The position numbers and the translations under genes were made by a program. From the NCBI GenBank assembly GCA_963666735.1, contig OY762926.1, forward strand, positions 2,464,001 to 2,528,000: a stretch of DNA of 64,000 nucleotides, given 5' to 3'. Below are positions 10,090-40,597 of this stretch, one piece after another. The stretch comes from Gemmatimonadota bacterium (GTDB taxonomy: Bacteria > Gemmatimonadota > Gemmatimonadetes > Palauibacterales > Palauibacteraceae). Within the stretch, counting starts at the first letter, position 1, and every line of letters starts with the position of its first letter. Under the pieces are notes generated by a model. The model ran no database searches, was not told the origin of the DNA, and saw only the letters and a program-made list of their open reading frames with translations.

Positions 10090-10379
10090 CTATCCGGCCG
10101 CGCGGGGCATTTCGGCAGGTAGCGGACGTTCTCTCGCTACATCCAGATCGTAACCCGCTGGAGATTGAGCCAGAACCGCGCCGACGGGCCGAAGTAGTGC
10201 GACAACCGCAAGGCGGTGTTGGCGGTGATCGCGCGCCTGCCATGGACGATCTGGTTGATGCGGCCGGGAAGCACGCCTATGTCGGTGGCCAAACGATATT
10301 GGCTGATTTCCATTGGATCGAGGAATTCTTCCAGCAGCACTTCGCCGGGGTGCGCGGGCGGCATCCTTGCCGGCGTCAC
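10090..10379 (-). pseudogene. higA: HigA-family antitoxin, frameshifted near the 3' end; no higB upstream
   Basis: HPGEVLLEEFL...ITANTALRLSHYFG..FWLNLQ. The conserved YDL tail (GYDLDVARE...) continues in another frame after a 1-nt loss at ~10157 and ends at TAG 10090. Confidence 0.75.
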
Positions 10380-12370
10380 GTTGATGCTTCGACCAGTGGC
10401 TGATTACCGTCTTCTTTCAACTTCGCCCCTCCGGTTTCCTCGCCCTGTCCCTCCGTTGCCACGGCCGGTGCCAAGAAGGGCGACGCGAGTAGCTTTCGCT
10501 TGAAATCACCCTGCCAATCGCTCCCCAGGTTGCCAACGCTTAGGAACTGTTCTCCGATGACGCTCAAGAAGGCTCCCTCGTTTCCGCCACTCACGTGACG
10601 ATTCCGATCCGCACACGCCCTCCCTTGCCCTGCTTGACGCCTTGGAGATGCTTCCAAGAGTAGGTCTGAATCGCACGACACCATACCCGCCTTCCACGGC
10701 CCTGTCTCGTTCTCTGCATGGACAACTTGGTATTCGACCGCATGAAACCCGGCATCCTCCAACGCCTGGAACAACGCGATCCAAGCCGTTGGCTCCTTGT
10801 TCGCGTAGCTGAATACGAACCGTCCATCTGATTCGAGGACACGATGAATCTCTCGAAATAGGTTGCTAAGCAGTCCCCGATAGGACTCCACGTCACCTGC
10901 GTTCCCGTTCACACGGTTGACGGCCGCATCGCCTCTTCCGTCGTGTACGCCGAGTTTCGCCCACGCGCGAAGCGGCATAGATAGTTCTCCATACTGGACA
11001 TCGTCATGATACGGAGGGTCCGTCAGGACGAGATTGACGACAGCGTCTGGCAAGGCCATACGCTCTGAACTGCCGAGCACGACACGTGCTGCCACGTCCT
11101 CCGTCAAGGCGCTTCTAGGACTCGACGAATCCCACGGTCCTTCTACCAAGACCGAATTACCCACTTCACTCCTTAGCCAGTCCGACGCTTTTGCCATTGC
11201 CCGCACCCTCTGCGAGAACGTTCCTCGACCATATCGGTAGGCGCCCCAGACGTTGGGCTCCGCCGACAGAGTCGTAAAGTTAAAGCGATGCAACGCCATG
11301 GTCTCGTAGTTCTTGAGGTACCAACGATCCCATCGTGAAGCATACCCGGCTGTCTCGGCGACGCCGACCGCTGCCAGCTCCAACGCCATCAAGACGGGTT
11401 CAGTCACGTCGAGTGCTGCCACCGCCTGCAGCAGTGACTCCAGCACCGCTCTTTGTCTAGCTGGATATAGAGACTCCCAGTTCTGAAATCCATGTCGCAG
11501 CAACACGCGCGTTTCCACGCCAAGGGGTATGGGTCCGAGATTCGTCGTTGGATTCCACGGCCTATCCTTGCTTCGCTCGATCTCGCCCTCAGACGGGTGC
11601 GACAGCTCCCGCTGTTCCCGGCCTGCTCTCTGCACTAGGATCGGCAGCCACGTTACGCCCCGTCGCATTAGGTCCGCCAACGAGGACTCCAAGCCGCAGC
11701 TTGGGCATGTAGTTCTTCGCCCAACCAAGTATCGTTCGTCGGGGTCAACCCATTCCGTACACTCCACACATTTGCGGGCGCGAATGTTTGACCGAAACAA
11801 ATGACCCCTGCGGCACGCGAGAAACGCTTCTCCGGCCTTGGTCTCCTTACGCTTTACCAACGAGGTCATCGCATATGGATAGAGTCGTCGTTCAATTCCA
11901 CACCTCGGACATGTCGCGGCAGCTACCCGCACGGTGTGGGTAACGATACCGTCATGACCCGAAGCCATCTCCGTCTTGTACGCCTCATCGAGCAGGGGTT
12001 GAAGCTTAGCTTCGAGTTGACGTTTTGCTTCCAGCAATTCGTCTGACGGCGGTAGACGGAGCGTCGTCGCAAGCCCGTGAGCCACCCACGAATTGATGTC
12101 CTGTGCGTAGATTTGATATCCGCGTGCCAACGCCGCGAAGGCTACGATGCCACCACCGACGAACGGGTCCGCGACTAGCCCCCCTTCGCCGCGAAGTCGC
12201 TTGTACGCTGCAAGGATCGAATCCGTGACTGCCATCGTCCTACGCGCCCACCATCGATACGACGACACTGGCGGGACTATTTTCTCCCGCTGCCTCGTTT
12301 CTGACCGCGCGCGTGCACCTACTCTTTCGGGGCGCAACTGCGCTAGGATGCTCGAACGCCGATCGCTCAT
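10376..12370 (-). CDS. DUF1156-like amino (N6A/N4C) DNA methyltransferase with Zn-ribbon insert
   Basis: RWWARR N-terminal motif, motif I DPFVGGG, catalytic TDPPY, CxxC clusters (CPRC, CVEC, CPSC); GGAGG-type RBS upstream. Confidence 0.85.
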   Translation of the reverse strand: MSDRRSSILAQLRPERVGARARSETRQREKIVPPVSSYRWWARRTMAVTDSILAAYKRLRGEGGLVADPFVGGGIVAFAALARGYQIYAQDINSWVAHGLATTLRLPPSDELLEAKRQLEAKLQPLLDEAYKTEMASGHDGIVTHTVRVAAATCPRCGIERRLYPYAMTSLVKRKETKAGEAFLACRRGHLFRSNIRARKCVECTEWVDPDERYLVGRRTTCPSCGLESSLADLMRRGVTWLPILVQRAGREQRELSHPSEGEIERSKDRPWNPTTNLGPIPLGVETRVLLRHGFQNWESLYPARQRAVLESLLQAVAALDVTEPVLMALELAAVGVAETAGYASRWDRWYLKNYETMALHRFNFTTLSAEPNVWGAYRYGRGTFSQRVRAMAKASDWLRSEVGNSVLVEGPWDSSSPRSALTEDVAARVVLGSSERMALPDAVVNLVLTDPPYHDDVQYGELSMPLRAWAKLGVHDGRGDAAVNRVNGNAGDVESYRGLLSNLFREIHRVLESDGRFVFSYANKEPTAWIALFQALEDAGFHAVEYQVVHAENETGPWKAGMVSCDSDLLLEASPRRQAGQGRACADRNRHVSGGNEGAFLSVIGEQFLSVGNLGSDWQGDFKRKLLASPFLAPAVATEGQGEETGGAKLKEDGNQPLVEAST

Positions 12371-12719
12371 ACTAACCGACCATCCCTCCTCAAGTGTCCA
12401 CGTGATCCAACTCTAGAGGCAGTCCCTGCATGAGCAAGGCGCGATCCAATAGCAGCTCCACCGACGTCCATCTGCCGACCGGCATACCATTTCTGTCGCG
12501 TGGTAGAGCGCCCGCTATCGCTTCATACTGACACCATCCACGAGCCTTCACGATACCGCTGGCGAACCGATCGCACACCATGAGAACCCAACGTTCATCT
12601 CTGGAGCTGTCCCGCTTTCACGGACGGTTAGTTTCTGTGGTTGATCGCCTCCGGTTCTTCTCCTTTCAGCCTCCCTCAGGCGCTCGGGAGAGGATGTCGG
12701 TGCGCGCCGCGGGTGCGCC

Positions 12720-13568
12720 TCAGGCCGCATGGTTGCTCTCGTAGTCGGCCGGCGACTCGTAGCCGAGTGCCGAGTGCAGCCGCCGGGTGTTGTAGAAGCC
12801 CTCGATGAAGCCGAAGACCTCCCGTCGCGCCTCATCCGCCGTGCGGAACGAGCGCTTCCAGATCAGCTCGCACTCGAGGGTGGCGAAGAAGCTCTCGCAC
12901 ATGGCGTTGTCGTACGCATCGCCCGCCGAGCCCATGGACTGGGCGATGCCCGACTCGCGGCAGCGCTCCCCGAAGGCGAGCGAGGTGTACTGCGAGCCCC
13001 TGTCGGAATGATGCACGACACGACCCTCGGGACGACGCCTTGCGAGAGCCATCGCCAGCGCGGTCTCGACGAGCTCGGTCCGCATGTGCGTCGCCATGGC
13101 CCAGCCGACGACGCGGCGGCTCCAGACGTCGAGCACGACGGCCAGATACAGCCAGCCAGCCCACGTGGGGACGTAGGTGATGTCGGCCACCCACAGCTCG
13201 TCGGGCCCCGAGGCCGAGAAGTCACGGTCCACCAGGTCCGGCGCGGGGCGGGCCTCGGTATCCCTCTTCGTCGTCGCCGTCTTGAAGCGCCGCCTGGTCG
13301 CGCCCTCGATCTCCAGCCCCCTCATCAGCCGCCCCACGCGCTTCTGCCCCACCCGCTCGCCCTCGGCCCTGAGCGCCGCGTGGATCCGCGGACGGCCGTA
13401 CGTCTCGCCGCTGCCGGTCCATATCTTCGCGATCCGGGCCTCCAGTTCCGCGTCCCGACGCGCGCGGTCCGAGGGAGGACGCCTCAACCAGTCGTAGTAG
13501 CCGCTGGGGGAGAGACCCAGCACCCGGCACATGGCCCGAAGCGGGAACTCGGCCCGGTGCGCCCTCAT
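12720..13568 (-). CDS. IS3-family transposase OrfB (DDE)
   Basis: WVADITY, HHSDRGSQY, DNAMCESFF, FYNTRRLHSALGY. Confidence 0.95.
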   Translation of the reverse strand: MRAHRAEFPLRAMCRVLGLSPSGYYDWLRRPPSDRARRDAELEARIAKIWTGSGETYGRPRIHAALRAEGERVGQKRVGRLMRGLEIEGATRRRFKTATTKRDTEARPAPDLVDRDFSASGPDELWVADITYVPTWAGWLYLAVVLDVWSRRVVGWAMATHMRTELVETALAMALARRRPEGRVVHHSDRGSQYTSLAFGERCRESGIAQSMGSAGDAYDNAMCESFFATLECELIWKRSFRTADEARREVFGFIEGFYNTRRLHSALGYESPADYESNHAA

Positions 13569-13879
13569 GAACGCATACCCCCGCCGGGGATCGATCCGCT
13601 CTCCCTCGCGAACCAGGCCGCGGCTTTTTTTAGGATGTCGCGCTCCATCCTGAGCCGCTTGTTCTCCCGCTCCAGGCGCCGCAACTCGCTGCGCGCCTCC
13701 GTTGTCAGCCCGTCGCTACGGAACCCCTCGTCCACATCCGCCTGCCGGACCCAGTTCCGGATCGTCTGCTCCGACGGCTCGAACTTCCGGGCGAGTGACG
13801 CGGCACTACGCCCGCCCCTCACCAGTTCCACCAGCCGCTCCCTGTACTCGGATGGATACCGCCCCTTCCGGCCCGCCAT
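13565..13879 (-). CDS. IS3-family transposase OrfA
   Basis: HTH plus LRMERDILKKAAAWF; A7G slippery run at 13624-13631; AGGAGG RBS. Confidence 0.93.
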   Translation of the reverse strand: MAGRKGRYPSEYRERLVELVRGGRSAASLARKFEPSEQTIRNWVRQADVDEGFRSDGLTTEARSELRRLERENKRLRMERDILKKAAAWFARESGSIPGGGMRS

Positions 13880-14627
13880 GGAACACCTCCTTGCTTGACC
13901 CCAATGGATAGGTGTCCGTCAAAGCGGGGCAACTCCACTCTCTCGCCTCGCTCTGCCTCGTTGCGGCTCAAGAACACCCTCGCTGGCTCTCGGCCTCTAG
14001 ATTGAGTCTTCACCTCGATTCGCACCGTAGTACCTGACAGATTTGGTGTAACCACATCGTACCCGAGTTGATCCGACACCTCACTTACGACGGCGACCCG
14101 CCGAGCCAAGTCCGGCCGTCCGCGTCGCGTAAGATAGTCTCTGCAGGCCTCCGCTACATATCGTTCTCCTTCACGTCCGACTTTCCGTAGCGCCTCGGCA
14201 TCGACCTTCTTCGCGACTGCCATCAAGATTTCGTCACGTCGACGCTGATCAGGACAGATGCTCCTGAGCCGTGTGTCAACACCTTCCGGAACGTATTCCC
14301 AACGCGCTTCTTCCCACCCTGCAGCGACAACCCATCCCGGACGCTCCCGCAATAGCAGCGTCTCAACGATCACCAGGATCGCATCCTCCTCAGGCAGTCG
14401 TGCGATCCTCCTTGCCGCGTCGGACACCAATAGCTGTCCGTCTTGTTTCCTCAATAGGCCTGCTCGCTCCAATATGGCCCTACCCTTGTCCAGCTCCATC
14501 GCTCCGTACACCCCGTCGCTCGGATCGTTGATGTACGCCGAGTGCAGCGTCTCCATAGTCTCACCGGCGTCGTCCACTAGGCTGATCACGCGTACCGCCG
14601 CTCGGCAGATGTGAGACGTGGGAAAAC

Positions 14628-16517
14628 TCACGGCTCGTCCCGCTCCGCTCCTCGAAGATGGGCCAGCACTGCCGATATGTCTCTCGCGTCCTCCACTGGT
14701 GCTCCATATTCCTCTTCATCGGGAAGCGCCATCGTAGCAATGTCCCCGTCCTCCAGCATCGTTCCAAGACGCTCAGCTTTTGCACGAACGCGTTCGTCGA
14801 TTACTTCGTCGATCGTATTCTCCGTCACCAAAAGAGTGATCCGCGTCTCCACATCAGGTCCTAGGCCCAATCGATGAATGCGATCCACACTCTGAAGATA
14901 TTGTCCCGCGTTGAACGTTCGTTCCAAGTAGATTGCGTCGTGACAAACCTGATGAAGGCTAATACCCTCGCCTGCGGCGGCCGGGTTGGCGATCATTACC
15001 AAGCACGCATCGTCGTTCCGGAACTTCCGCAGTTCGCCAATGCGATCCCGGTCGCCCTCCTTTTGTGCCTCCACAGGGATGCCTCCGTGAATCACGGCAG
15101 GATTAAGTTGTCTTAGCAACCTTTCGAGCGTCGCAATGTTTCGGACGAAATTGGTCCAAATCAATGTCTTGCGACCCTTTGTGGCATTAGCGTGGACCAG
15201 GTTCGCCAAGATCTCGAACTTCTGAGGGGTCTCGTAGGAACCGAACGACGTCAACAGGTCCACCAAATGACCTTGCTCTGGGAGTGGAAGAGGTGGATGT
15301 CGGAATACAATCGGGTCGAGTGGAGACGATCCCGCAACCAGAAGAGCGGGGTTTGTCGCCGCTTCTATCAGGTACATGACAATCCTGCCCATTCTTGCTA
15401 GAGATGCTTGGTCCGCCCTGCCCATCTCAAACGCACCAGCGTACTGGTTTCGAATGGCTTGGTACACATCTCGTTGTAGCCCGATCAGCGGCACCCTGAG
15501 GGCCTTGAATTCCGGCGGTCGCAAACCCAACTCCGCCTTGCGGGTTCTGACGAATATGGGGCGTATCGCCTCCGACACTCCCGCTACGACCTCAGGCGCC
15601 GCACTCCGCAAGTCACGCCGCGACGGAACGAGACGACGCCCAACGGTAGGCCAAAGGAAATCCAGAAGTGCGAGAAGATCCTCGGGACTGTGTGGTGCAG
15701 GTGTGCCGGTAAGGACATCTCGTCGCTCGGCCACAAACGCCAAATTCAAGCAAGCCCGTCCCCACTTCCCGTCCCAGCCCCTCTTTACTCGATGCGCTTC
15801 GTCAAGAACGACATGGGTCGCCTGCCCTCCAACCCAGCGTGACACGGCTTCATAGGCCCGATCTGTCGCCAGTCGCTGATAATTGATCAGGACAACCTCG
15901 GCTCGAAGACTAATCTCGTCGTCGAAGACTTCAATCGTCGGTGGTTGCTGAAAGCACTCATTCGCCTCTGACATCCACGCGTCGAATGACGAGATCGGTC
16001 CGACCACCAAGAGGGACTGGACCCGGCCCGCAAGGCGTTCCGCTTCGTAGACTCCGAAGGTTACCGTCGTCTTGCCTGCCCCAGGCACCGAGAAGTTCGC
16101 GCCGTGCGACAAGGCCAACAGCTTAGCCACGTCGCGTACTTGGAAGTCTCTTAATTCTCGGACGAAGCGGCCCCCCGCCAACCTGGCCGCTACTTCAAGT
16201 GTTGATACTGGCGAGGTTGGGCCGTACGCTTCGTCCAGTTGGTCGCCTAGTGCCGCCAGGCCCGTGAGAACGGCTCGTACTTGATCATCGGGACAGATTC
16301 GAAGTTTGTAACGCAAGCAAATCGTGCGAAGCGCTCCCGTGAAGGCGAGAAACGTGTCCAGCGGTACGGTCAGACGACCCTCTGTCGTAGATGCCTGAGC
16401 GCCATATAGCCCGCGTAAGCGTAGCCAGACTACATGGCGATCCTGAGCCTGTAGAGAGAGCGTTACCGACGACGCTGCGCGATCCAAGCGCAACGTGAGT
16501 TGGCCCGCGGACGCCAC
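14628..16517 (-). CDS. SNF2-family (SF2) helicase/ATPase
   Basis: PGAGKTT, LDEAH, LTGTP, AAGEGISL, QSVDRIHRLG. Start abuts the upstream stop; stop overlaps the downstream GTG. Confidence 0.9.
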   Translation of the reverse strand: MASAGQLTLRLDRAASSVTLSLQAQDRHVVWLRLRGLYGAQASTTEGRLTVPLDTFLAFTGALRTICLRYKLRICPDDQVRAVLTGLAALGDQLDEAYGPTSPVSTLEVAARLAGGRFVRELRDFQVRDVAKLLALSHGANFSVPGAGKTTVTFGVYEAERLAGRVQSLLVVGPISSFDAWMSEANECFQQPPTIEVFDDEISLRAEVVLINYQRLATDRAYEAVSRWVGGQATHVVLDEAHRVKRGWDGKWGRACLNLAFVAERRDVLTGTPAPHSPEDLLALLDFLWPTVGRRLVPSRRDLRSAAPEVVAGVSEAIRPIFVRTRKAELGLRPPEFKALRVPLIGLQRDVYQAIRNQYAGAFEMGRADQASLARMGRIVMYLIEAATNPALLVAGSSPLDPIVFRHPPLPLPEQGHLVDLLTSFGSYETPQKFEILANLVHANATKGRKTLIWTNFVRNIATLERLLRQLNPAVIHGGIPVEAQKEGDRDRIGELRKFRNDDACLVMIANPAAAGEGISLHQVCHDAIYLERTFNAGQYLQSVDRIHRLGLGPDVETRITLLVTENTIDEVIDERVRAKAERLGTMLEDGDIATMALPDEEEYGAPVEDARDISAVLAHLRGAERDEP

Positions 16518-17330
16518 CTAGATCGCGCCGATCTTGTCATACTGCGCGCGCAGGTCTCGGACCGCTTTTTCAAGCTTGCGTACTCTGTAGGTGAAGTCGT
16601 TTCGATCGAACGCCGAATCCTCCATCGCGGTTCTTAGCTGCGACCGGGCTCGTCGGATCTTGCCTGTGGCTTCCTTCAGCCTATTGCCCGGTGCTTCCGC
16701 CGCCTGCTCCCGTGCGTGATCTTGCTTCGCCAGTTCGGCGGCTCCATCCAACACTTGGCGAACCTGTTCGCGAATTCGATCACGATGTACTGTGACACGG
16801 GCGTCTCCCGTTCTTGCGTGGGGCGTATACTCCTCCAGGCCCGCCAGCCAAGTAAGGAAGGGCTCCGGATCTGAGCCCTCGCTCTCGGTTTCCGCCGAAG
16901 CACCGAGCAGGCCTAGGTTAAGATCATCCTCCGCCGTCTCTTCGGCGCTGCCAAATACCGCTTCGGTGGGCAGGAAGGTGCTTAGGTCCTGATCTTCGGA
17001 GAGGGCCGGCGCAAGATACGATTCGAAGAAATGCTCATTCATTTGTCGCAAGACCATGTAGCCGGATTCCAGGATGATACCGATAAAGCGCGTTGACCGC
17101 AGGCGGTCGGCCGCGTCGGGATCGTCCTTCTTCAGCTTCTCGTACGACGTGTCCAGTTCCTCCAGCGAGACCCGTTGATCATCAAAGACTTCATAGCTGA
17201 TTCTGTCCTGCGAGATCCCTTGAATCTCTCGAATCATGGAGAGGATTCGAATGGCCTGTTCAACCCTCGCGACGCCCTTTCGCATATGTGTCAGATCTGA
17301 AGACTGAGCATACCGAAGCATGAGAGCGAT

Positions 17331-18660
17331 TGAAGTGACCCCAAGAAGTTGGACACCCGACCTCCGGGTTTATTGTGCTGCTCAGCCCTCTCGGTAGAGG
17401 TCCTCGATGATGGTCATGGGTGGCCGGTCTCCGAGGGAGGAGTGACGGCGTACCCGATTGTAGTAGTTGATCCGGTCGCGGACGACGGCCGCGAGTTCCT
17501 CGACCGAGCCGGCGTCGAGGATCAGAGACCTGTTCTCCACCTTGAAGCGGCCGAAGAAGCTCTCCATCTCCGGGTTGTCCCTCGGTCCGCGCAGCGCGTA
17601 GGAGAGCCGCGCGCCCGCCGACAGCAGCCGGCGGGTCCATGCATAGCCGGTGAACACCGGGTCCCGGTCCTGGTGGACGATGATCCCGTCCAGCGAGTGC
17701 CGGAGGCGGGCCAGGGTCCGCTCCGCCGCCGTCCAGGCCGAGAGCGCCAAGCCGGAGTCGGCCGACGCTCCAACGGCGAAGCCCGCGACGTACTTCGTCG
17801 CGTGATCGAGGATGGGGATCAGCCACGCCTTGCTCGTCCCGCCGGCGTGGACGAGTTCGGTGAAGTCGGTGTAGAAGACCTCCAGCGGCCCCATCTCCGC
17901 CTTCGGCCGTCCCGACAACAGGTTCGCGCGCGGCCCCGCCGCGTCTATGGCCCGCCGGACCGCGCTCGGCTTCGGCCGCGTAACCGTACGCCTCAAGGGC
18001 AGATCCCACAGCCGGTGCAGCCGCGCCACGACCTTCCGGTTCACCCGGTGGCCGTACGTCTCCCGGAGTTCCGCGGCGGTTCGCCGGTACCCGTACTCCG
18101 GGTGCGCCTCGGCGATCGCCTTGAGCGGCGCCTCCAGGTGCGCGTATTTCTCCGCGTACGGCACTCTCGTCCGCGTGTGGTGGTACCACGTCGAGCGCGC
18201 CAGCTCCACCGCCCGCAGCGACGGCCCCAGGCCGTACGCCCCATGCGTTCCGGAGACGAGCGCCGCCTTCTCAGCCACGCTCAGCCGCTCCGGCCCAAGA
18301 AGTTTTTTAAAAGGGCGATCTCCACCTCCTTCTTGCCCAGAAGCTGCTCCAGGTCCCGGATCCGGCGCTCGTACTCCTTCACCGTCGTCTCCCGGGCGAA
18401 GACCTCCGGCGCCCGGTCCACGAACCGCCGCCTCCAGAGCTGTACCGAGTTCGGGTGCACCCCGTACGCCTTGGCCACCTGCCCGGGCGTCTTCTCGCCA
18501 CCCAGGACCTCCAGCACCACCTGTGCCTTCAGCTTGGGCGTGTACCGCCGCCGTGCCATGTCGACCTCCTTCCGGTCTGCCGGGTTCTACCCTGCGCAGC
18601 ACCGCGCCCGGAGGTCAAACGTCACAATGGTGGGGTGTCCAGGATCTGGGGGTCATATCC
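17331..18660 (-). mobile_element. IS3-family insertion sequence (IS-2, distinct from IS-1)
   Basis: Imperfect IRs TGAAGTGACCCCAAGAAGTTGGACACCC and (reverse complement) GGATATGACCCCCAGATCCTGGACACCC; TSD GAT at 17328-17330 and 18661-18663. Confidence 0.92.
17382..18559 (-). CDS. IS3-family transposase OrfA (18281-18559) and OrfB (to 17382), joined by -1 frameshift
   Basis: OrfA RRYTPKLKAQVV HTH; slippery TTTTAAAAAAC at 18302-18312; OrfB has YTDFT, HQDRD, DNPEMESFF, YYNRVRRHSSL. Confidence 0.9.
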
Positions 18661-19311
18661 GATTCCATCCAGCGGATGTTCGTAGGTCGTGTGGAGCTCT
18701 TCCACGAACAACAGTTGATTCGTGAACGTGTAGTTTTGCTTGAACTCTCGCGTCATTTGGAGTTTGAGCTCCAATTCAGCGATTTCACGCTCGGTCGCAG
18801 CAGGTGGAAGAACAGCAACACGGATGTAGTCGTTATTCAGGTCACCAAGCGCAACAGCGCGCCGGTTGCCGTTCACCAAGAGGCCGGTTCTAGTGACGAC
18901 GCCGGGTTGTCGCTGTCCTTCCTCGGCAAGATTTGCCTTGAGGTCCTCGTAAGTGTCGTCTTTACGTATCAAGTCGGCGAGGATTTCTTGAGCGGCGGCT
19001 TCCGTCGGGGCGGTCTGCACCGCATCCCTACCGGGATGGGATGCCAATTGGGCCTGGAGGCGGTGGCTACGGTGATTCAACACAACGGCGTCCATCCGGA
19101 GACGTACAACGTCGCAGAGCTGCTGAGTACCTTTCCAAGGGATCCGGTGACGTTCGCGTTCTCCGGATGAGTCATTGAGTTCGTCAATTATCTGCTGTTG
19201 GCGGTTGTGTCGAGAAAGCGGTGCCATCCGGACGCCTCCGTAAGGTTGCGATGAGCAGGTGAAGAAGAAGGTGAAACTACGGAAGTCTCAAAGTATGTCC
19301 CGAGCCCCAAG

Positions 19312-22300
19312 TCAGGTTGACAAGCGGCGGCCGGGGGTCCAGGGGGCCCCGGCCGCTTCGAGCGCACTCTCGGCGCCGGCGAAGGCGCCGTCCATGAAGT
19401 TCGCGAACTCCGACATCCACGCGCCGAAGTCCGTTTCGGCGATCTCCAGGTTGCGGCGGTGGGTGTCGGTCGGCGTCTGCCGCGTGTCCCAGTGGCCGCC
19501 GATCACCCGGCCCACGCGGTTCGAGATCGAGGGTACGGTGGACTCGTTGAGGCGCTGCCGGGCCGGGTCCCCGAAGAGACGGATCGAGAAATCCTGGAGG
19601 CTGGCGCCGAGCGCATCCAGTTCGCCGAAGAGTTCGAGCGAGGCGTTCGGCGCCTCGAGGAGCGCGGCCCGCATGTGACGCAGCCGGTCCCGGGCGCGGC
19701 CCACCTCCTCGCCCGCCGAGGCGATGCGGCGCCTCAACTCCGACGCCTCGTTCTGGAAGGCGACGACGGCCCCGAAGTCGGTGCCGGCCTCGGTCGTGGG
19801 CACGGCCACCACATCGAAGGTCTGCGCCAGGCCGACCTCCCGCGCGCCTTCGGCCGTGACGACGACGAGTTGCGCGGAGTATTCGCCGGGGGCGACGAGG
19901 GGCCCCTGCGGCGGTCCCACCCACGGCGGCGTGAAGCCGGGCACCGTGAGGTCGATCGGGTCGGGTGCCGGGGCGCGCAGGTCCCAACTCACGCGGTGCA
20001 GGCCCTGCCTGGCGGGAGCGGCGAGCCAGCGCACGGTGCCACCATCGGAGTCGGCGATCGCGATCAGCGCCCTCGGGCCGCTCTCGGTCGCCTCCTCGTG
20101 CAGCGCGTCGTAGCCGGGGAACGCCACGTCCCCGCCCTGGTCCCGCACCATCCGCTCGGCCGCGCGGCGCGCTTCGGTCGCCGTCGTCACCGTCTCGGGC
20201 AGGTAGTAGGTGAGGGTGGCCCCGAAGTCCGGGTTCGGCGCCGTGTAGTCGTCCGACCCCAGCGTCGGCTTGCCGCGGGCCTGCATGGGGACCGATGGGA
20301 TGTACCACCAGGCGTCGCGGATCGGGAACACAGCCCCTCCCTCCGCCGCGGCCATGGCCGTGTTCGTGCCCCCGGCGAGTTCGCGCAGCGGAGTGTAGTC
20401 GTCGAGCACGTAGAAGCCACGGCCGAAGGTCGCGCCGACCACGTCGTTGTCGCGGCGCTGGACTTCCAGATCGCGGTGCGGGATGGTGGGACCGGGCAGC
20501 AGGTGCCAGTTCGCGCCGCCGTTCACGCTCGCGTACATGCCGAACTCGGCCCCGAGAAAGAGCAGGTTCGGGTTCAGGTGATCCTGCTCGATCGCCCACG
20601 CGATCGTCCCGTCGGGCAGATCTCCCGCGATCGAACGCCACGTCCGGCCCGCGTCGTTGCTCTCGAACACGAGCGGCCGGAAGTCGCCCTCCTTGTGGTT
20701 GTCCGCCACGGCGAAGACCGTCGCCGCGTCGAACTGCGACGCCTCCACGTCGTTGATGAACGCCCGTTCGGGCACGCCGGGAAGGGCGTTCGCGAGCCGC
20801 CAGTTCGCCCCGTCGTCCTCCGTCACGTGGATGAGTCCGTCGTCGCTCCCCGTGTAGATCACGCCCGCCGTCACCGGTGATTCGGAGATCCCCGTGAGCG
20901 TCGCGTACTTGGACATGGCGCCGTTGTCGATGAGGTCGTCGACGCTCCATACGCGGCCCATGAACTCCAGTTCGTAGCGGTTCACGTTCGTCGTCAGATC
21001 GCCGCTGATCGCCGTCCACGAGTTGCCCCGGTCGTCGGAGCGCCACACGCGCTGCGAGCCGTGGTAGATGCGGTCGGCGTCGTGCGGGCTGATGAGGACC
21101 GGCGCGTCCCAGTTCCAGCGCTCGGGCGGGTCGCCGGGCGCGGGCTGCGCCTGGATGTCCAGCGCCTCTTCGCTCTCCCGGTCGTAGCGGTAGAGGTTTC
21201 CCTGCTGCGTCTGCAGGTAGAGGATGTCCGGATCCCTCGGGTCGATCTGGACCGCGTACCCGTCGGCCCCCATGGGCGCGTACCAGTCCCGGTTCCGCAC
21301 GCCCTCGACGTTGGTGGTGCGGGCGGGCCCCCACAGGGTGCCGAGGTCCTGCGCGCCGCCGAGCACGTGGTAGAACGGCTCCGCGTTGTCGAGGGCGAGC
21401 TTGTAGAACTGCGAGATCGGCAGGTTCGGGAAGTGCCGGAACGTGCGGCCGTCATCGAAGCTCTCGTACAGGCCGGCGTCCGTCCCGACGAGCAGGTGCA
21501 GGGCGTCCTCCGGGTCGATCCAGAGGGCGTGGTTGTCGCTGTGTTTGTCGCGCGCCGTCTCGAGGTTCCCGAACGTCGCGCCTCCGTCCCGCGTGACCTG
21601 GATGAAGACGTCCATCTGGTACACGACGTCCGCATCGTGCGGGGAGGCTTCGATCTCCTGGTAGTAGTGGGGACCGGTGCCGCCGGAGATGTACGAGTTC
21701 CGCCGCTCCCAGCTCTCTCCCTTGTCGAGCGAACGGTAGAAGCCGCGCTCGTCGTCGTTCGCCTCCATGGTGGCGTACACGACCTCGGGGTTCGCGGGGG
21801 TGACCGCGAGTCCGATCTTTCCCACGTCGCCCGTCGGGAGTCCCGCCGAGATCCGGCGCCAGCTCTCCCCGCCATCGGTGGACTTGTAGATGCCCGAGTT
21901 GGGGCCGCCGGCGAGGTGCCCCCAGATCTTCCGGCGACGCTCGTACGCCGCCGCATAGACCATGTCCGGATTGCCGGGCGCGAATTCGATGTCGGTGACG
22001 CCCGTGTTCTCGTCGATCTCCAGCACGAGCCGCCAGGAGTCGCCGCCGTCGGTGGACTTGTACACGCCGCGGTCGCCGCCCGGAGCCCAGAGCGACCCCT
22101 CCGCAGCCACCAGGATGACATCGCTGTCGCGCGGGTCGACGAGGATCTTCCCGATGTGCTGCGAGTCGGCGAGACCGACGTTCTCCCACGTCTCCCCGCC
22201 GTTGCGGCTGCGGTAGACGCCGTCCCCCCAGCCGACGTGGCGCCCGCTGACGTTCTCTCCCGTCCCCACCCAGACCACATCCGGGTTGTTGGGATCGATC

Positions 22301-22811: not shown

Positions 22812-23213
22812 TCAGCTCCTGCGGGGCGACCGGGAACGCCAGGCGGCGGCCAGCGCCCGGTCGAACGTCATGAGGTCCTCGGGCTCCCGCCGGATACAGC
22901 AGGCAAGATGAACAAGATCGCGCGCCTGGAGTTCAGGGTGCGGGGTCGACAGATGTCGTGCCCGTTCCACATCTTCTCTTTCGACGGGCCAGACTTCCGC
23001 CACTGTCGCGTCCACGAGATCGAAGGCGACGTTCAAGGTGCGCCGTTCGCCTCTTCGGACGTATGTGTGGAGTAGTTCCTGAAGTATTTCCGCCGACGTC
23101 ACGAGGCGTCGGTCGCGCCGCTTCGAGCGAAAGAAGAACGCCCGGGCCTCCGCCTTGAAAGCCTGATCGGCGCCGACGAAATACATGAAGACGTTCGCGT
23201 CGACGAAGATCAC
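22812..23213 (-). CDS. vapC: VapC-type PIN-domain toxin
   Basis: GTG start IFVDANVFMY; TSAEILQE, ARDLVH, TFDRAL. Confidence 0.85.
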   Translation of the reverse strand: MIFVDANVFMYFVGADQAFKAEARAFFFRSKRRDRRLVTSAEILQELLHTYVRRGERRTLNVAFDLVDATVAEVWPVEREDVERARHLSTPHPELQARDLVHLACCIRREPEDLMTFDRALAAAWRSRSPRRS

Positions 23214-23371
23214 GTCGTCTCGATCCCGGAGAGCCTGGACTCCGAGATCACTCGCCTCACGTCGGGCCAGTCGGGTTTTGGAGCGTCGGACCGCCGCGCA
23301 TCGCACGCGGCGTTGAACTCGCGAAGTTTTTCCAAGGTGACCTTACGCGGACGCGTGGCGGCCAGCCTCAT
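23210..23371 (-). pseudogene. Antitoxin C-terminal fragment (53 aa), paralogous to the upstream antitoxin
   Basis: RPRKVTLEKLREFNAACDA..PKPDWPDVRRVI aligns to RPRLFTVEELEAFAAECDA..REPNWEETKRML; stop overlaps the vapC GTG. Confidence 0.65.
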
Positions 23372-23376
23372 GAAAA

Positions 23377-23646
23377 TCATGCGCCAGGATCCGGAAACCG
23401 AGTCTCGACGAGCATGCGCTTGGTCTCCTCCCAGTTCGGCTCCCTGGCGCCGGGTGGATGCATCGCGTCGCACTCGGCGGCGAACGCCTCGAGTTCCTCT
23501 ACGGTAAACAGGCGTGGACGCGCCGCCTCCAGCTTCTCATCGGCCGCTTCCCGCAGCCATTGCCCGAGCGACTTCTCCTCGCGCTCCGCCTGGGCCTGGT
23601 AGCGGATCTTGGCGCTTTCCCTGACGACGAAGTGAATCCTCGACAT
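23377..23646 (-). CDS. Antitoxin (RHH-like N-terminus)
   Basis: MSRIHFVV..YQAQAEREEKSLGQWLREAA, upstream of a PIN toxin. Palindromes GTGCATG/CATGCAC (23661-23683) and TGATGCATCA (23691-23700) lie upstream. Confidence 0.75.
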   Translation of the reverse strand: MSRIHFVVRESAKIRYQAQAEREEKSLGQWLREAADEKLEAARPRLFTVEELEAFAAECDAMHPPGAREPNWEETKRMLVETRFPDPGA

Positions 23647-23751
23647 GACCCCTCTTGTATGTGCATGATTGTGACACATGCACCACGTTGTGATGCATCA
23701 GTCCATCCGTCAACCACTGACCATCAAGTACCGTCCGTCATCATCCGTGCA

Positions 23752-38460: not shown

Positions 38461-39360
38461 TCAATATGTGAGGAGCAATCTATCTTTGACCACTTCCCCT
38501 TCAAGCGATTGGCCTTCCAACTGAAAGCGTCGCAGCATCGATCTACCGCAATTCACAGTTGCTTCACGCTCGAACAAACCTGAAGGAATCGGTACATCGC
38601 AGATCACATCCCCTGATCGTTTCGAGCCATCGATGCTAAGAGCAACCAGGACACCCCTTTCCTTGCAGCGATCGATTTCGACGAACAAACGCTTGAGATT
38701 GAACGTCTGCGCTCCATATAGAATGGCTTGAGTACATGTGTACGGAGGGTCACAATATACAACGTCGCCCCTCTTAGCATCAGCCATCGTATCGGCGAAG
38801 TCACATACAGCAAAGGAAGCTCCCTGGAGCCTGGCTCGCCACTCATCCACACGCCGCGCAAAGGACTCCGGGGCAATAGGCTTATGCACACCGCATGGCG
38901 TACTCAAGTATCCGTCTTGGCGGAACCGGACGATTCCCCCGTAGCAAGCTCGCGAAATCATGAGGAGATCGGCTCCGTTGGGCCGGCGGTTATACGAGTC
39001 GCGTATCGCCGCATAGCCCATCTGCGGGGTTTGGGTGTGACGCATCATGCTGTTCCAGCGTCCGCTGTACCAAGTCTTGAGAAGCTCAGGGTCGCGAAGG
39101 AGGGTGTCCCAGATCTCAACCAGAGGTTCTAAAACGTCAGATCCAACCGCGCGCCGTGGCGCCAGCGTTCCCATGACCGCTCCGCTACCGAGAAACGGCT
39201 CATAGTACGTCCCGTAGCCCCGAGGGAAATACCGCGCGATCTCATGGGCAAATCGTTGTTTGTTGCCAACCCATTTCAGGAGTTGCATCCGGAACGGCGG
39301 GACGCCGAACCCCAGCGCCGCATCCGACGTTGTATCCTCAAAATCCAGCTGTACCGGCAA
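38461..39360 (-). CDS. Dam/D12-class DNA adenine methyltransferase
   Basis: LKWVGNK, YEPFLGSGAV, YCDPPY. Start uncertain: TTG 39360 after GGAGG, or ATG 39288. Confidence 0.9.
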   Translation of the reverse strand: MPVQLDFEDTTSDAALGFGVPPFRMQLLKWVGNKQRFAHEIARYFPRGYGTYYEPFLGSGAVMGTLAPRRAVGSDVLEPLVEIWDTLLRDPELLKTWYSGRWNSMMRHTQTPQMGYAAIRDSYNRRPNGADLLMISRACYGGIVRFRQDGYLSTPCGVHKPIAPESFARRVDEWRARLQGASFAVCDFADTMADAKRGDVVYCDPPYTCTQAILYGAQTFNLKRLFVEIDRCKERGVLVALSIDGSKRSGDVICDVPIPSGLFEREATVNCGRSMLRRFQLEGQSLEGEVVKDRLLLTY

Positions 39361-39419
39361 CCCTGCCCTCCCCTGTTGCTTTCGACCCGGTTTCCCTGCC
39401 TGAACGAACGGACGAAACT

Positions 39420-39451
39420 TATCCGCTTTTGGGATATCCGCAACCCGGAGC
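39420..39451. promoter_or_regulatory. Putative tandem controller-protein operator
   Basis: TATCC-N7-GGATA overlapping TATCC-N7-GGAGC, between the divergent M and C genes. Confidence 0.6.
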
Positions 39452-39501
39452 ATAGCATTCTTCCTACCCTCGGCAAGCCACCCACGGAACCCTTGAACAA
39501 C

Positions 39502-39756
39502 ATGCTAATCGGAGATCAGCCAGAAATCATCGTCAGATCCCTCCTGCGGACGATCCGCCTCGAGGCGGGTCTGACGCAAGCTGACGTGGCTCGGCAAATC
39601 GGGCGGCCCCAGAGCTTCGTCAGCAAGTATGAATCGGGCGAGCGACGTCTCACGCTGCATGAAGTTCGGTCCATCTGCATCGCGTGCCAAGTCGAGCTCG
39701 CCACGTTCGTTCAACGCTTCGAACGTCACCTCCACGGACCTTCTCATGCAACCTGA
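39502..39756 (+). CDS. XRE-family HTH controller (C) protein
   Basis: LRTIRLEAGLTQADVA..GRPQSFVSKYESGERRL; overlaps the next gene. Confidence 0.85.
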   Translation: MLIGDQPEIIVRSLLRTIRLEAGLTQADVARQIGRPQSFVSKYESGERRLTLHEVRSICIACQVELATFVQRFERHLHGPSHAT

Positions 39757-40597
39757 CCCGACGTTCCTTCGACAGCCTGGATCTTTCTGGGCAAATGTAA
39801 GAGCCATCAGCCAAGTGGCTGGCTATTCCGTGCGCGGAACCGGCTACGTATCCGCCCACGGACTGAGCGCCATGGTCCGTGCGGTGGAGCGTAAGGGCCT
39901 CCAAAGCACTCACCTACAAAGCGCCGACGGCCAGCCCACCGCCCTGGGGGCGAAGCTCACCAGCTATTTCCGGTTCCGAGCAAGAATGTTGAACGACTAT
40001 GTTGAGCCTCGCCTAATGGATCTGGAGCGAGCACAGAACGTGTTCGGTGAATTACACGCTCGCTTGGCGCCCCGCTGCCCGATTCCGGCAAATAAGCAGA
40101 GGGGCGAAAAGGCCGGACCAGCCTATTTCACGGGTATCATCAACATGCTCATTGAGCAGCATAGCCAAGGGTGTCCAGTAGATTACGACCCGCGCCAACT
40201 CACGACGGTTACACGAGATGAGAAACCACTGCGAACACTGGCGCGACGTGTGGATGGAGCGTTTCCGGCGCCTTTGAACCCGATCGCCATTTGGGAAATC
40301 AAAGAATATTACTACACGACGACGTTCGGAAGCCGTATTGCAGATGGCGTCTACGAGACCTTGTTGGACGGCATGGAGCTGTCAGAGTTGTTCACGAACG
40401 AGGACGTTCGGGTCGATCACCTGCTAATGATCGATAGCCATCGTACATGGTGGAAATCGGGGCGGTCCTACCTCTGCCGTATCATCGACATGTTGCACAT
40501 GGGTTTCGTCGATGAGGTGCTCTTCGGATATGAAGTCGTCGAGCGGCTCCCCGACGTTGTGGCAAACTGGGTCACCCGATATCGACAGCCCCACTAG
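39746..40597 (+). CDS. Putative type II restriction endonuclease
   Basis: PD-(D/E)xK-like RVDGAFP...WEIKEY; located in the canonical M / C-R layout. Confidence 0.75.
   Translation: MQPDPTFLRQPGSFWANVRAISQVAGYSVRGTGYVSAHGLSAMVRAVERKGLQSTHLQSADGQPTALGAKLTSYFRFRARMLNDYVEPRLMDLERAQNVFGELHARLAPRCPIPANKQRGEKAGPAYFTGIINMLIEQHSQGCPVDYDPRQLTTVTRDEKPLRTLARRVDGAFPAPLNPIAIWEIKEYYYTTTFGSRIADGVYETLLDGMELSELFTNEDVRVDHLLMIDSHRTWWKSGRSYLCRIIDMLHMGFVDEVLFGYEVVERLPDVVANWVTRYRQPH

Follow-up and report, generated by a model that had tools for sequence, protein, structure and literature searches.

A 64,000-nucleotide stretch of contig OY762926.1 from a Gemmatimonadota bacterium living as a sponge symbiont (assembly GCA_963666735.1, positions 2,464,001 to 2,528,000), referred to here as the window and numbered from 1 to 64,000, carries a cassette of four minus-strand genes for a ParB-like protein, an SNF2-family ATPase, a NOV_C (DUF3883) nuclease and an amino-DNA methyltransferase (Table 1). 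The SNF2 gene (629 aa) and the methylase gene (664 aa) are uninterrupted in the window, and in silico removal of two insertion sequences (IS) of the IS3 family restored open reading frames (ORFs) of 458 aa for the ParB-like protein and 300 aa for the nuclease. A first-pass annotation of this DNA had described four coupled, co-oriented genes of low GC content, and the lengths, motifs and junctions were all found as it gave them, with TAG directly followed by GTG at 16518/16517, a GTGA overlap at 14628-14631 and a 19-nt gap before 12370. The ribosome-binding site that it placed in this gap did not hold, as GGAGG sits 14 nt from the methylase ATG and makes a poor site. The IS-free cassette has a GC content of 0.579 against 0.685 for the genome, in which none of 662 6-kb segments was equally low, and the GC content at third codon positions was 0.60-0.63 as compared with 0.92 in both flanking host genes. 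A promoter scan of positions 17100-19500 returned no sites, and no RNA holder was listed.

Table 1. Features of the cassette, its flank and a second island, in window coordinates.
Feature	Position	Strand	Basis
ParB-like gene, 5' part, codons 1-189; ParB/Srx N-terminal domain with N119-x-N121-x-R123 (GNRR)	18661..19227	-	fold via homologue L029
IS-A, IS3 family, splits the ParB-like gene; orfA 18281-18559, orfB 17382-18299	17331..18660	-	Pfam/NCBIfam
ParB-like gene, 3' part; remaining helix-turn-helix region, acidic linker, C-terminal helical hairpin	16518..17327	-	
SNF2-family superfamily 2 (SF2) ATPase/translocase, intact, 629 aa	14628..16517	-	Pfam and motifs
NOV_C/DUF3883 PD-(D/E)xK nuclease gene, 5' part, codons 1-231; E156, D192, E206-K208, E225	13938..14631	-	Pfam NOV_C and conservation
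IS-B, IS3 family, cuts the nuclease domain off from its conserved end; orfA 13565-13879, orfB 12720-13568	12602..13937	-	Pfam/NCBIfam
Nuclease gene, 3' part, with conserved W235, G252-W253, P264, D266, W275, G290	12390..12598	-	
Amino-DNA methyltransferase, intact, 664 aa	10376..12370	-	motifs and conservation
higA-like antitoxin, flanks the insertion, outside the cassette	10137..10379	-	TIGR02607, 99 bits (cut-off 47.7)
D12-class adenine methylase, second island	38461-39453	-	
DUF7687/DUF7690 endonuclease, second island	39629-40597	+	

Neither the N-terminal piece of the ParB-like protein nor any of four intact homologues had a Pfam match, and its C-terminal piece had weak, unrelated helical matches alone. 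The fold was read from an AlphaFold model of the intact homologue L029 (39% identity; confidence score pLDDT 92.9), in which a ParB N-terminal fold is followed by a helix-turn-helix (HTH) region, an acidic linker modelled at low confidence and a long helical hairpin. Foldseek matched this model to ParB, KorB, Noc and PadC (best 7bm8, E 4.9e-4), and VIA matched it to PadC (Z 9.8, root-mean-square deviation (rmsd) 2.5, 94 aligned), to pNOB8 ParB 5K5D (Z 9.7, rmsd 3.7, 207 aligned) and to KorB (Z 9.2). The predicted ParB fold and HTH, together with the conserved box II arginine, support the earlier assignment of the first gene to the ParB fold. The GNRR motif singled out by that annotation is present at residue 120 of the 458-aa protein, but it is not a family signature, since 4 of 70 aligned rows read GNRR and 52 of 70 ANTR; box II is N-[AG]-N-[TR]-R with a fixed core N-x-N-x-R, and R123 occurs in all 70 rows. 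With the ParB CTPase clamps (ParB, KorB, Noc, PadC and pNOB8 ParB) the family, which comprises 399 clusters at 50% identity (E<=1e-30), shares the N-terminal nucleoside triphosphate (NTP) fold, HTH, flexible linker and C-terminal helices predicted for L029, as well as the invariant R123. It differs from them in that box II is mostly ANTR where the clamps have GxRR, and in having neither a Pfam ParB match nor a linked ParA, its partner being an SNF2 ATPase. The nucleotide used by ParB-type proteins is, according to part of a recent preprint, not predictable from sequence (bioRxiv 2025.10.10.680097).

The SNF2 gene encodes the motifs GAGKT at 146, DEAH at 239 and RIHRLG at 546, and matches Pfam SNF2-rel_dom (1e-14) and Helicase_C (1.2e-8); of 8000 candidates scored against it, 2788 were homologues at E<=1e-20. 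Physical contact between the ParB-like protein and this ATPase was weakly predicted: for the L029 pair the complex score was 0.43 against 0.00 for the best control, with at least 90% of contacts agreeing between runs and a partner pLDDT of at least 74. The mark applied was reached by 116 of 157 solved pairs and by 2 of 215 mismatched pairs, and passes at scores of <=0.60 comprised 18 of the 157 solved pairs and both of the mismatches; passes this low are more often wrong than right unless contact is likely beforehand. The nuclease carries GYD at 190 and EVK at 206 and matches Pfam NOV_C (2e-7), and its catalytic residues are conserved (E156 in 66, D192 in 67 and E206 with K208 in 66 of 67 aligned rows). 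An Atlas structure search with its N-terminal 145 residues returned NOV_C clusters alone. This N-terminal domain was rejected as a candidate sequence reader, since it did not clearly co-vary with methylase class (when SNF2 identity was matched, its identity was 0.30-0.32 for members of one class and 0.27 across the two main classes), a result that fits a sequence-blind core.

The methylase contains DPFVGGG (motif I) at 68 and DPPY (motif IV) at 451, an order that we take to mark the alpha-type class. Between them lies a cysteine-rich insert (C154, C157, C186, C201, C204 and C222 in 43 of 43 rows), a probable zinc (Zn) ribbon. The earlier description of the enzyme as DUF1156-like held as a distant relationship (NF042963, 45 bits against a cut-off of 1000), but the protein has no match to Pfam DUF1156. 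The latter model, PF06634, matches five places in the genome, none of them inside the window; three are strong (C1:2852052, 3636466 and 208687), and that at C1:208687 adjoins a copy of IS-B at 206696-208040, which suggests other, partly IS-damaged loci of the Hma or type-1 BREX-related (BR type 1) kind in the source genome. PDB sequence searches with the methylase and with profiles of the ParB-like protein, NOV_C and the X6 family described below gave nothing useful.

A scan of GTDB genomes with the SNF2 gene gave 316 relatives, and the best 80 of these were taken as the locus set; all trees were built with FastTree. The set comprises loci from Actinomycetota (60), Pseudomonadota (7), Chloroflexota (5), Acidobacteriota (3), Planctomycetota (2), Myxococcota (1), Bacillota (1) and an unnamed phylum (1), so that the co-occurrence of the genes in other genomes, on which the first-pass annotation depended, extends across at least seven named phyla. 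The ParB-like gene lies directly upstream of the SNF2 gene in 76 of the 80 loci, and a NOV_C nuclease gene lies downstream in 71. A methylase was found in 72, belonging to the window family in 44, to the Eco57I/N6 type in 23, to the C5 class alone in three and to an SPPY beta-type in two, and five of the eight loci without one end at contig edges. Methylase class mostly tracks the SNF2 tree, with swaps. The four genes first proposed as a system are therefore not a fixed unit: ParB-SNF2, usually with NOV_C, is the constant part, different loci use different classes of methylase, and most relatives with the window methylase carry a fifth gene. A three-gene ParB-SNF2-methylase form (L004, L009, L023, L046 and L150), mostly alphaproteobacterial, has neither NOV_C nor the fifth gene X6, and no nuclease was identified within its operon. 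Among the recurrent neighbours of the 80 loci there was no ParA family, nor was a sigma70-like AbiRa family recurrent. Relatives of the cassette were present on plasmids (64 records), and a phage search gave two weak matches among 50,697 records. On the plasmids of L106 (Lactococcus) and L110 (Enterococcus) the ParB-like and SNF2 genes stand directly behind the mod and res genes of a Type III restriction-modification (R-M) pair, and neither a NOV_C nor a PLD domain was found there; on a Bradyrhizobium plasmid (L115) two tandem ParB-like genes precede a distant SNF2 relative and adjoin a DGQHR/radical SAM cluster.

The fifth gene, X6, occurs in 31 of the 80 loci. Its structural model matched restriction endonucleases (REases) at a middling level in VIA (BstEII Z 9.5, BsoBI 9.3, BsaWI 9.2 and AgeI 9.2, rmsd 3.1-4.2), with a TIR domain next at 8.6, and in Foldseek with a best E of 9e-3. 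PD..ExK is missing from 22 of 27 aligned X6 proteins, and the five that retain the motif are second copies beside a degenerate form; X6 is thus usually predicted to be a restriction-enzyme fold without cutting residues. Degenerate X6 and an active-looking PD..ExK paralogue stand together in L005, L010, L011, L026 and L027, and in L026 and L027 the paralogue adjoins a methylase of the SPPY beta-type, which stands in place of the usual enzyme. When 15 contig-edge and 3 cut loci were dropped, 62 loci with the window methylase family could be evaluated, of which 49 had an REase-like partner (X6 or X32) and 13 did not. Defective loci numbered 1 of the 49 and 7 of the 13, L020 being scored as intact in this count although its SNF2 gene is interrupted. 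Decay of loci that lack the partner is a hint only, as five of the seven are NOV_C-less loci, at least four of them in one branch, and one is divergent and intact. Neither the X6 nor the X32 profile had a match anywhere in the source genome; the four-gene form present in the window is thus the rarer one.

The first-pass annotation could not match this combination to a named system. By gene content the cassette is indeed not DISARM, BREX, Dnd or Hma, but a described system in which a ParB-like protein, an SNF2 ATPase and a nuclease require a methylase does exist. AbiR of Lactococcus lactis pKR223, as portrayed in the relevant part of a 2026 review (PMC13064643), has been known since 2000 and consists of AbiRa, AbiRb and AbiRc with M.LlaKR2I, where AbiRa is sigma70-like, AbiRb is ParB-like by superposition on PDB 5K5D and AbiRc is a PLD endonuclease domain fused N-terminally to an SNF2 ATPase. 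It reduces the replication of phage DNA and depends on the LlaKR2I methylase, without which it is toxic; the review calls the way in which the parts bring about resistance still unclear. The cassette shares with AbiR, whose methylase dependence is taken from this description, a ParB-like protein matching 5K5D, an SNF2 ATPase, a nuclease domain and a methylase. AbiR-type loci include one on a Priestia plasmid, where dcm, a ParB-like gene and PLD-SNF2 occur with a nuclease of the Sau3AI family, and others on Enterococcus plasmids, which combine sigma70-like, ParB-like and SNF2 genes. Cassette profiles matched these plasmid loci at E ~1e-17 to 1e-19 (ParB) and 1e-60 to 1e-72 (SNF2), and their ParB-like proteins read GNRR. 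These matches indicate that the ParB-SNF2 core is homologous. The differences lie in the nuclease, in the third subunit and in the methylase: the AbiR methylase belongs to a separate Type II R-M pair whereas that of the cassette is an alpha-type amino-methyltransferase, and the extra partner is AbiRa in AbiR and usually the predicted dead REase fold in relatives of the cassette. None of the Pfam and NCBIfam system models was reached by the cassette, and PADLOC gave partial, sub-threshold matches with no full-length model; an AbiR-named model was absent from the PADLOC results even for AbiR-type proteins. AbiRc is among the proteins that DefenseFinder tracks. A search of the open full-text literature, with subscription papers and supplements outside its scope, returned no paper on a ParB-like protein, SNF2 ATPase, stand-alone NOV_C nuclease and methylase together, and further papers on related systems offered nothing closer.

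The combination of SNF2, NOV_C and a DUF1156-related methylase is shared with Hma, Gao RL and type-1 BREX-related systems. Hma and BR type 1 use a DUF499 ATPase, however, and none was found in the window island or among recurrent neighbours; the cassette has a ParB-like gene, and Pfam DUF1156 is unmatched. Hma, described in parts of two papers as combining a DUF499 ATPase with a fused nuclease (PMC11232893, PMC12839542), joins SNF2 to NOV_C, whereas these are separate genes in the window and in nearly all loci, the single apparent fusion (L076) coinciding with a frameshift. HmaA models match the window SNF2 protein weakly (3.5e-6, 105 aa). The DISARM core of DrmA, DrmB and DrmC is missing from the window, where the SNF2 protein matches DrmD weakly (27.8 bits against a cut-off of 610), and there are no PglZ or BrxC genes of BREX in the island, a weak PglXI match falling on the methylase alone.

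With DISARM the link lies in the methylase. A metagenome scan with this gene returned 67 loci, an SNF2 gene being visible in 36, and in nine other metagenome loci members of the window methylase family stand beside DrmA-, DrmB- or DrmC-like genes; proteins of three of the nine were scanned directly and the others were assigned by BLAST clustering. In the methylase tree, DISARM-linked and ParB-SNF2-linked members are interleaved in both deep branches. A single methylase family thus serves two different motor-nuclease units, and its presence in both kinds of operon supports a self-marking role. The DISARM-like loci themselves (L147, L160-L163, L169 and L173-L175), in which the Zn-ribbon amino-methylase replaces the usual DrmMI or DrmMII, are possibly an undescribed DISARM subtype; some have DrmA/B/C, others the methylase, an 810-aa protein with a weak DrmE_C match and DrmA/B.

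The copy in the window is a broken, partial example of the cassette and matters less than the clade. Both elements were assigned to the IS3 family by Pfam and NCBIfam, the NCBIfam cut-off being passed by IS-B alone. IS-A is flanked by a 3-bp target duplication (GAT) and has one further identical copy elsewhere in the genome; IS-B has the duplication CTC and 11 further copies at >=99.2%. With the ParB-like and nuclease genes both split the copy is most likely dead, and as the dead-REase gene is missing too, at most the methylase and ATPase would be made. Since IS-B removes conserved residues from W235 onward, the nuclease product is probably inactive, and even without the IS elements the operon may be incomplete. 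An assembly artefact was ruled out by contigs of four public runs (two studies) with the same IS-containing arrangement. Contigs of the four runs stop within the IS elements, 28-30 nt from their ends, the left junction of IS-A is spanned by a contig of run X5, and no joint that skips an IS is listed; an IS-free allele may still occur in the population, as contigs drop rare variants. That the IS elements spare the methylase is no evidence of selection, as the probability of this by chance was 0.46 (0.14 for sparing both methylase and SNF2).

The SNF2 gene had no match in 40 relatives, and when 400 other genomes of the phylum were searched it appeared in just two, with 35-36% identity. At the corresponding slot in 21 congeners, a gamma-glutamyltransferase gene adjoins a BNR-repeat gene with no insert in 11, nine have inserts of 0.5-6.5 kb and one is cut by a contig end. 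The insert carries an Eco57I-type methylase in four of the 21, with a neighbouring BsuBI/PstI-type endonuclease confirmed in two, and such methylases and endonucleases indicate that the slot takes up R-M cargo. The higA-like antitoxin at the edge of the insertion is shortened, in an alignment with two congeners, by a 1-nt deletion near its 3' end; both congeners have a short toxin-like gene upstream of higA, where the window has the 3' end of the methylase gene.

Taken together, we read the cassette as an unnamed, widely transferred, AbiR-like, restriction-like immune cassette guarded by its methylase, of which the window holds a horizontally acquired and since inactivated copy, and to this joint statement we give a probability of about 0.66. 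The modification-based self/non-self system first proposed thus survives as the best reading of the genes, in the form of a methylation-based role. In intact relatives the methylase would place a mark on a sequence in the DNA of the host. The ParB-like protein and the SNF2 ATPase, observed as a constant gene pair and weakly predicted to touch, would form a fixed motor unit that loads or translocates on DNA without the mark, with the ParB-like protein loading or gating the SNF2 motor. By analogy with HmaA, whose NOV_C domain nicks DNA and is required for defence in the portion of that study concerned (PMC11232893), and with AbiR, this unit would bring in NOV_C to nick or cut, which would block phage or plasmid replication or kill the cell. 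The reader of the sequence would most likely be an exchangeable partner, the dead REase fold or the methylase, and not the core. A bolder version, which we regard as doubtful, is restriction by a ParB clamp: the dead REase or methylase would read unmethylated sites in a parS-like manner and load an NTP-gated clamp that licenses SNF2 and NOV_C away from the site, and the core would be re-targeted by swapping methylase/reader pairs, including pairs shared with DISARM.

Several observations weigh against the restriction-like reading. The clade is known here from genes and predicted structures alone, and the comparison with AbiR was made through the review description and AbiR-type plasmid loci rather than the pKR223 proteins. 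Those loci have 26-31% SNF2 identity to the window clade and form a separate long branch. The AbiR nuclease is a PLD domain fused to SNF2, whereas that of the cassette is a separate NOV_C PD-(D/E)xK protein; the 629-aa window SNF2 protein has no PLD match, while L112 and L114 carry PLDc_2 in proteins of 851-857 aa. AbiR also has the sigma70-like AbiRa of about 800 aa, and the window island has neither such an ORF nor room for one, with 85 bp upstream and higA downstream. Three loci with room for a methylase (L008, L072 and L078) have none detected, the five loci of the three-gene form keep ParB-SNF2-methylase although no NOV_C was found in them, and the REase-fold partner is missing from five four-gene loci that appear intact, so that it is not always needed. 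HmaB left T4 restriction unchanged in the part of the Hma study that reports it (PMC11232893), so that a linked methylase need not be a self mark. The expected enrichment in defence islands did not emerge: 17 of 117 flanking ORFs, picked heuristically, matched PADLOC at E<=1e-25, and the 12 of 112 left after four methylases and one probable IS helper were removed are not separated from the control (2 of 22 window genes). Lastly, the four R-M-bearing inserts in congeners may represent one event.

These points leave room for other explanations. The cassette could be an abortive infection or addiction module, in which a sequence-blind ParB-SNF2-NOV_C toxin, restrained either by global methylation or by the methylase as a protein, would kill the cell on phage-induced changes instead of selectively cutting incoming DNA that is unmethylated. 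AbiR is classed as an abortive infection system in the sections of the review cited above (PMC13064643), where its effect on phage DNA replication and its toxicity without methylase are of this kind, and a core that does not co-vary with methylase class would be expected of such a toxin. The interchange of four unrelated methylase classes nevertheless fits a DNA mark better than a protein-protein antidote, and the REase-fold partner is kept in most evaluable loci with the window methylase family (49 of 62); we consider this explanation unlikely. It is more improbable still that the methylase and REase-fold genes are a separate R-M pair, with ParB-SNF2-NOV_C as a hitch-hiking back-up or modification-dependent module that targets modified or otherwise foreign DNA independently of the linked methylase. 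DUF3883 domains do occur in modification-dependent enzymes adjoining unrelated methylases, as part of one paper describes (PMC6765204), HmaA works without HmaB in the same portion of the Hma study (PMC11232893), and some partners are apparently ordinary R-M (C5 methylase with Vsr and REase; Type III R-M on L106 and L110). However, 23 loci have an Eco57I-type methylase without any of the three profiled REase partners, most aligned X6 proteins would do no cutting of their own (22 of 27 lack PD..ExK), and the way in which methylase class follows the SNF2 tree, with Eco57I-type loci in one branch, implies long joint inheritance.

The three-part anatomy of the ParB-like protein and its presence on some plasmids could point away from defence, to a role in the partition, chromatin or maintenance of a mobile element. 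This appears very improbable given a conserved nuclease, a methylase that is nearly always present, the missing ParA family and the near absence from phage records.

Elsewhere in the window, a second low-GC island (38461-40597) holds a divergent Type II R-M pair, and a PIN-domain (VapC-like) gene with small neighbours at 22812-23679 is probably a set of toxin-antitoxin remnants.

New here are the sharing of the methylase family with DISARM-like operons, the finding that congeners hold R-M genes in the corresponding slot, and the recognition that four-gene loci are a minority. The ParB-SNF2 core has spread far beyond lactococci; it is found with no fewer than four classes of methylase and with two types of nuclease, often alongside a predicted dead restriction-enzyme fold. 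A clade this wide makes the mechanism of AbiR testable in many culturable hosts, and it raises the question of whether immunity uses ParB nucleotide chemistry.

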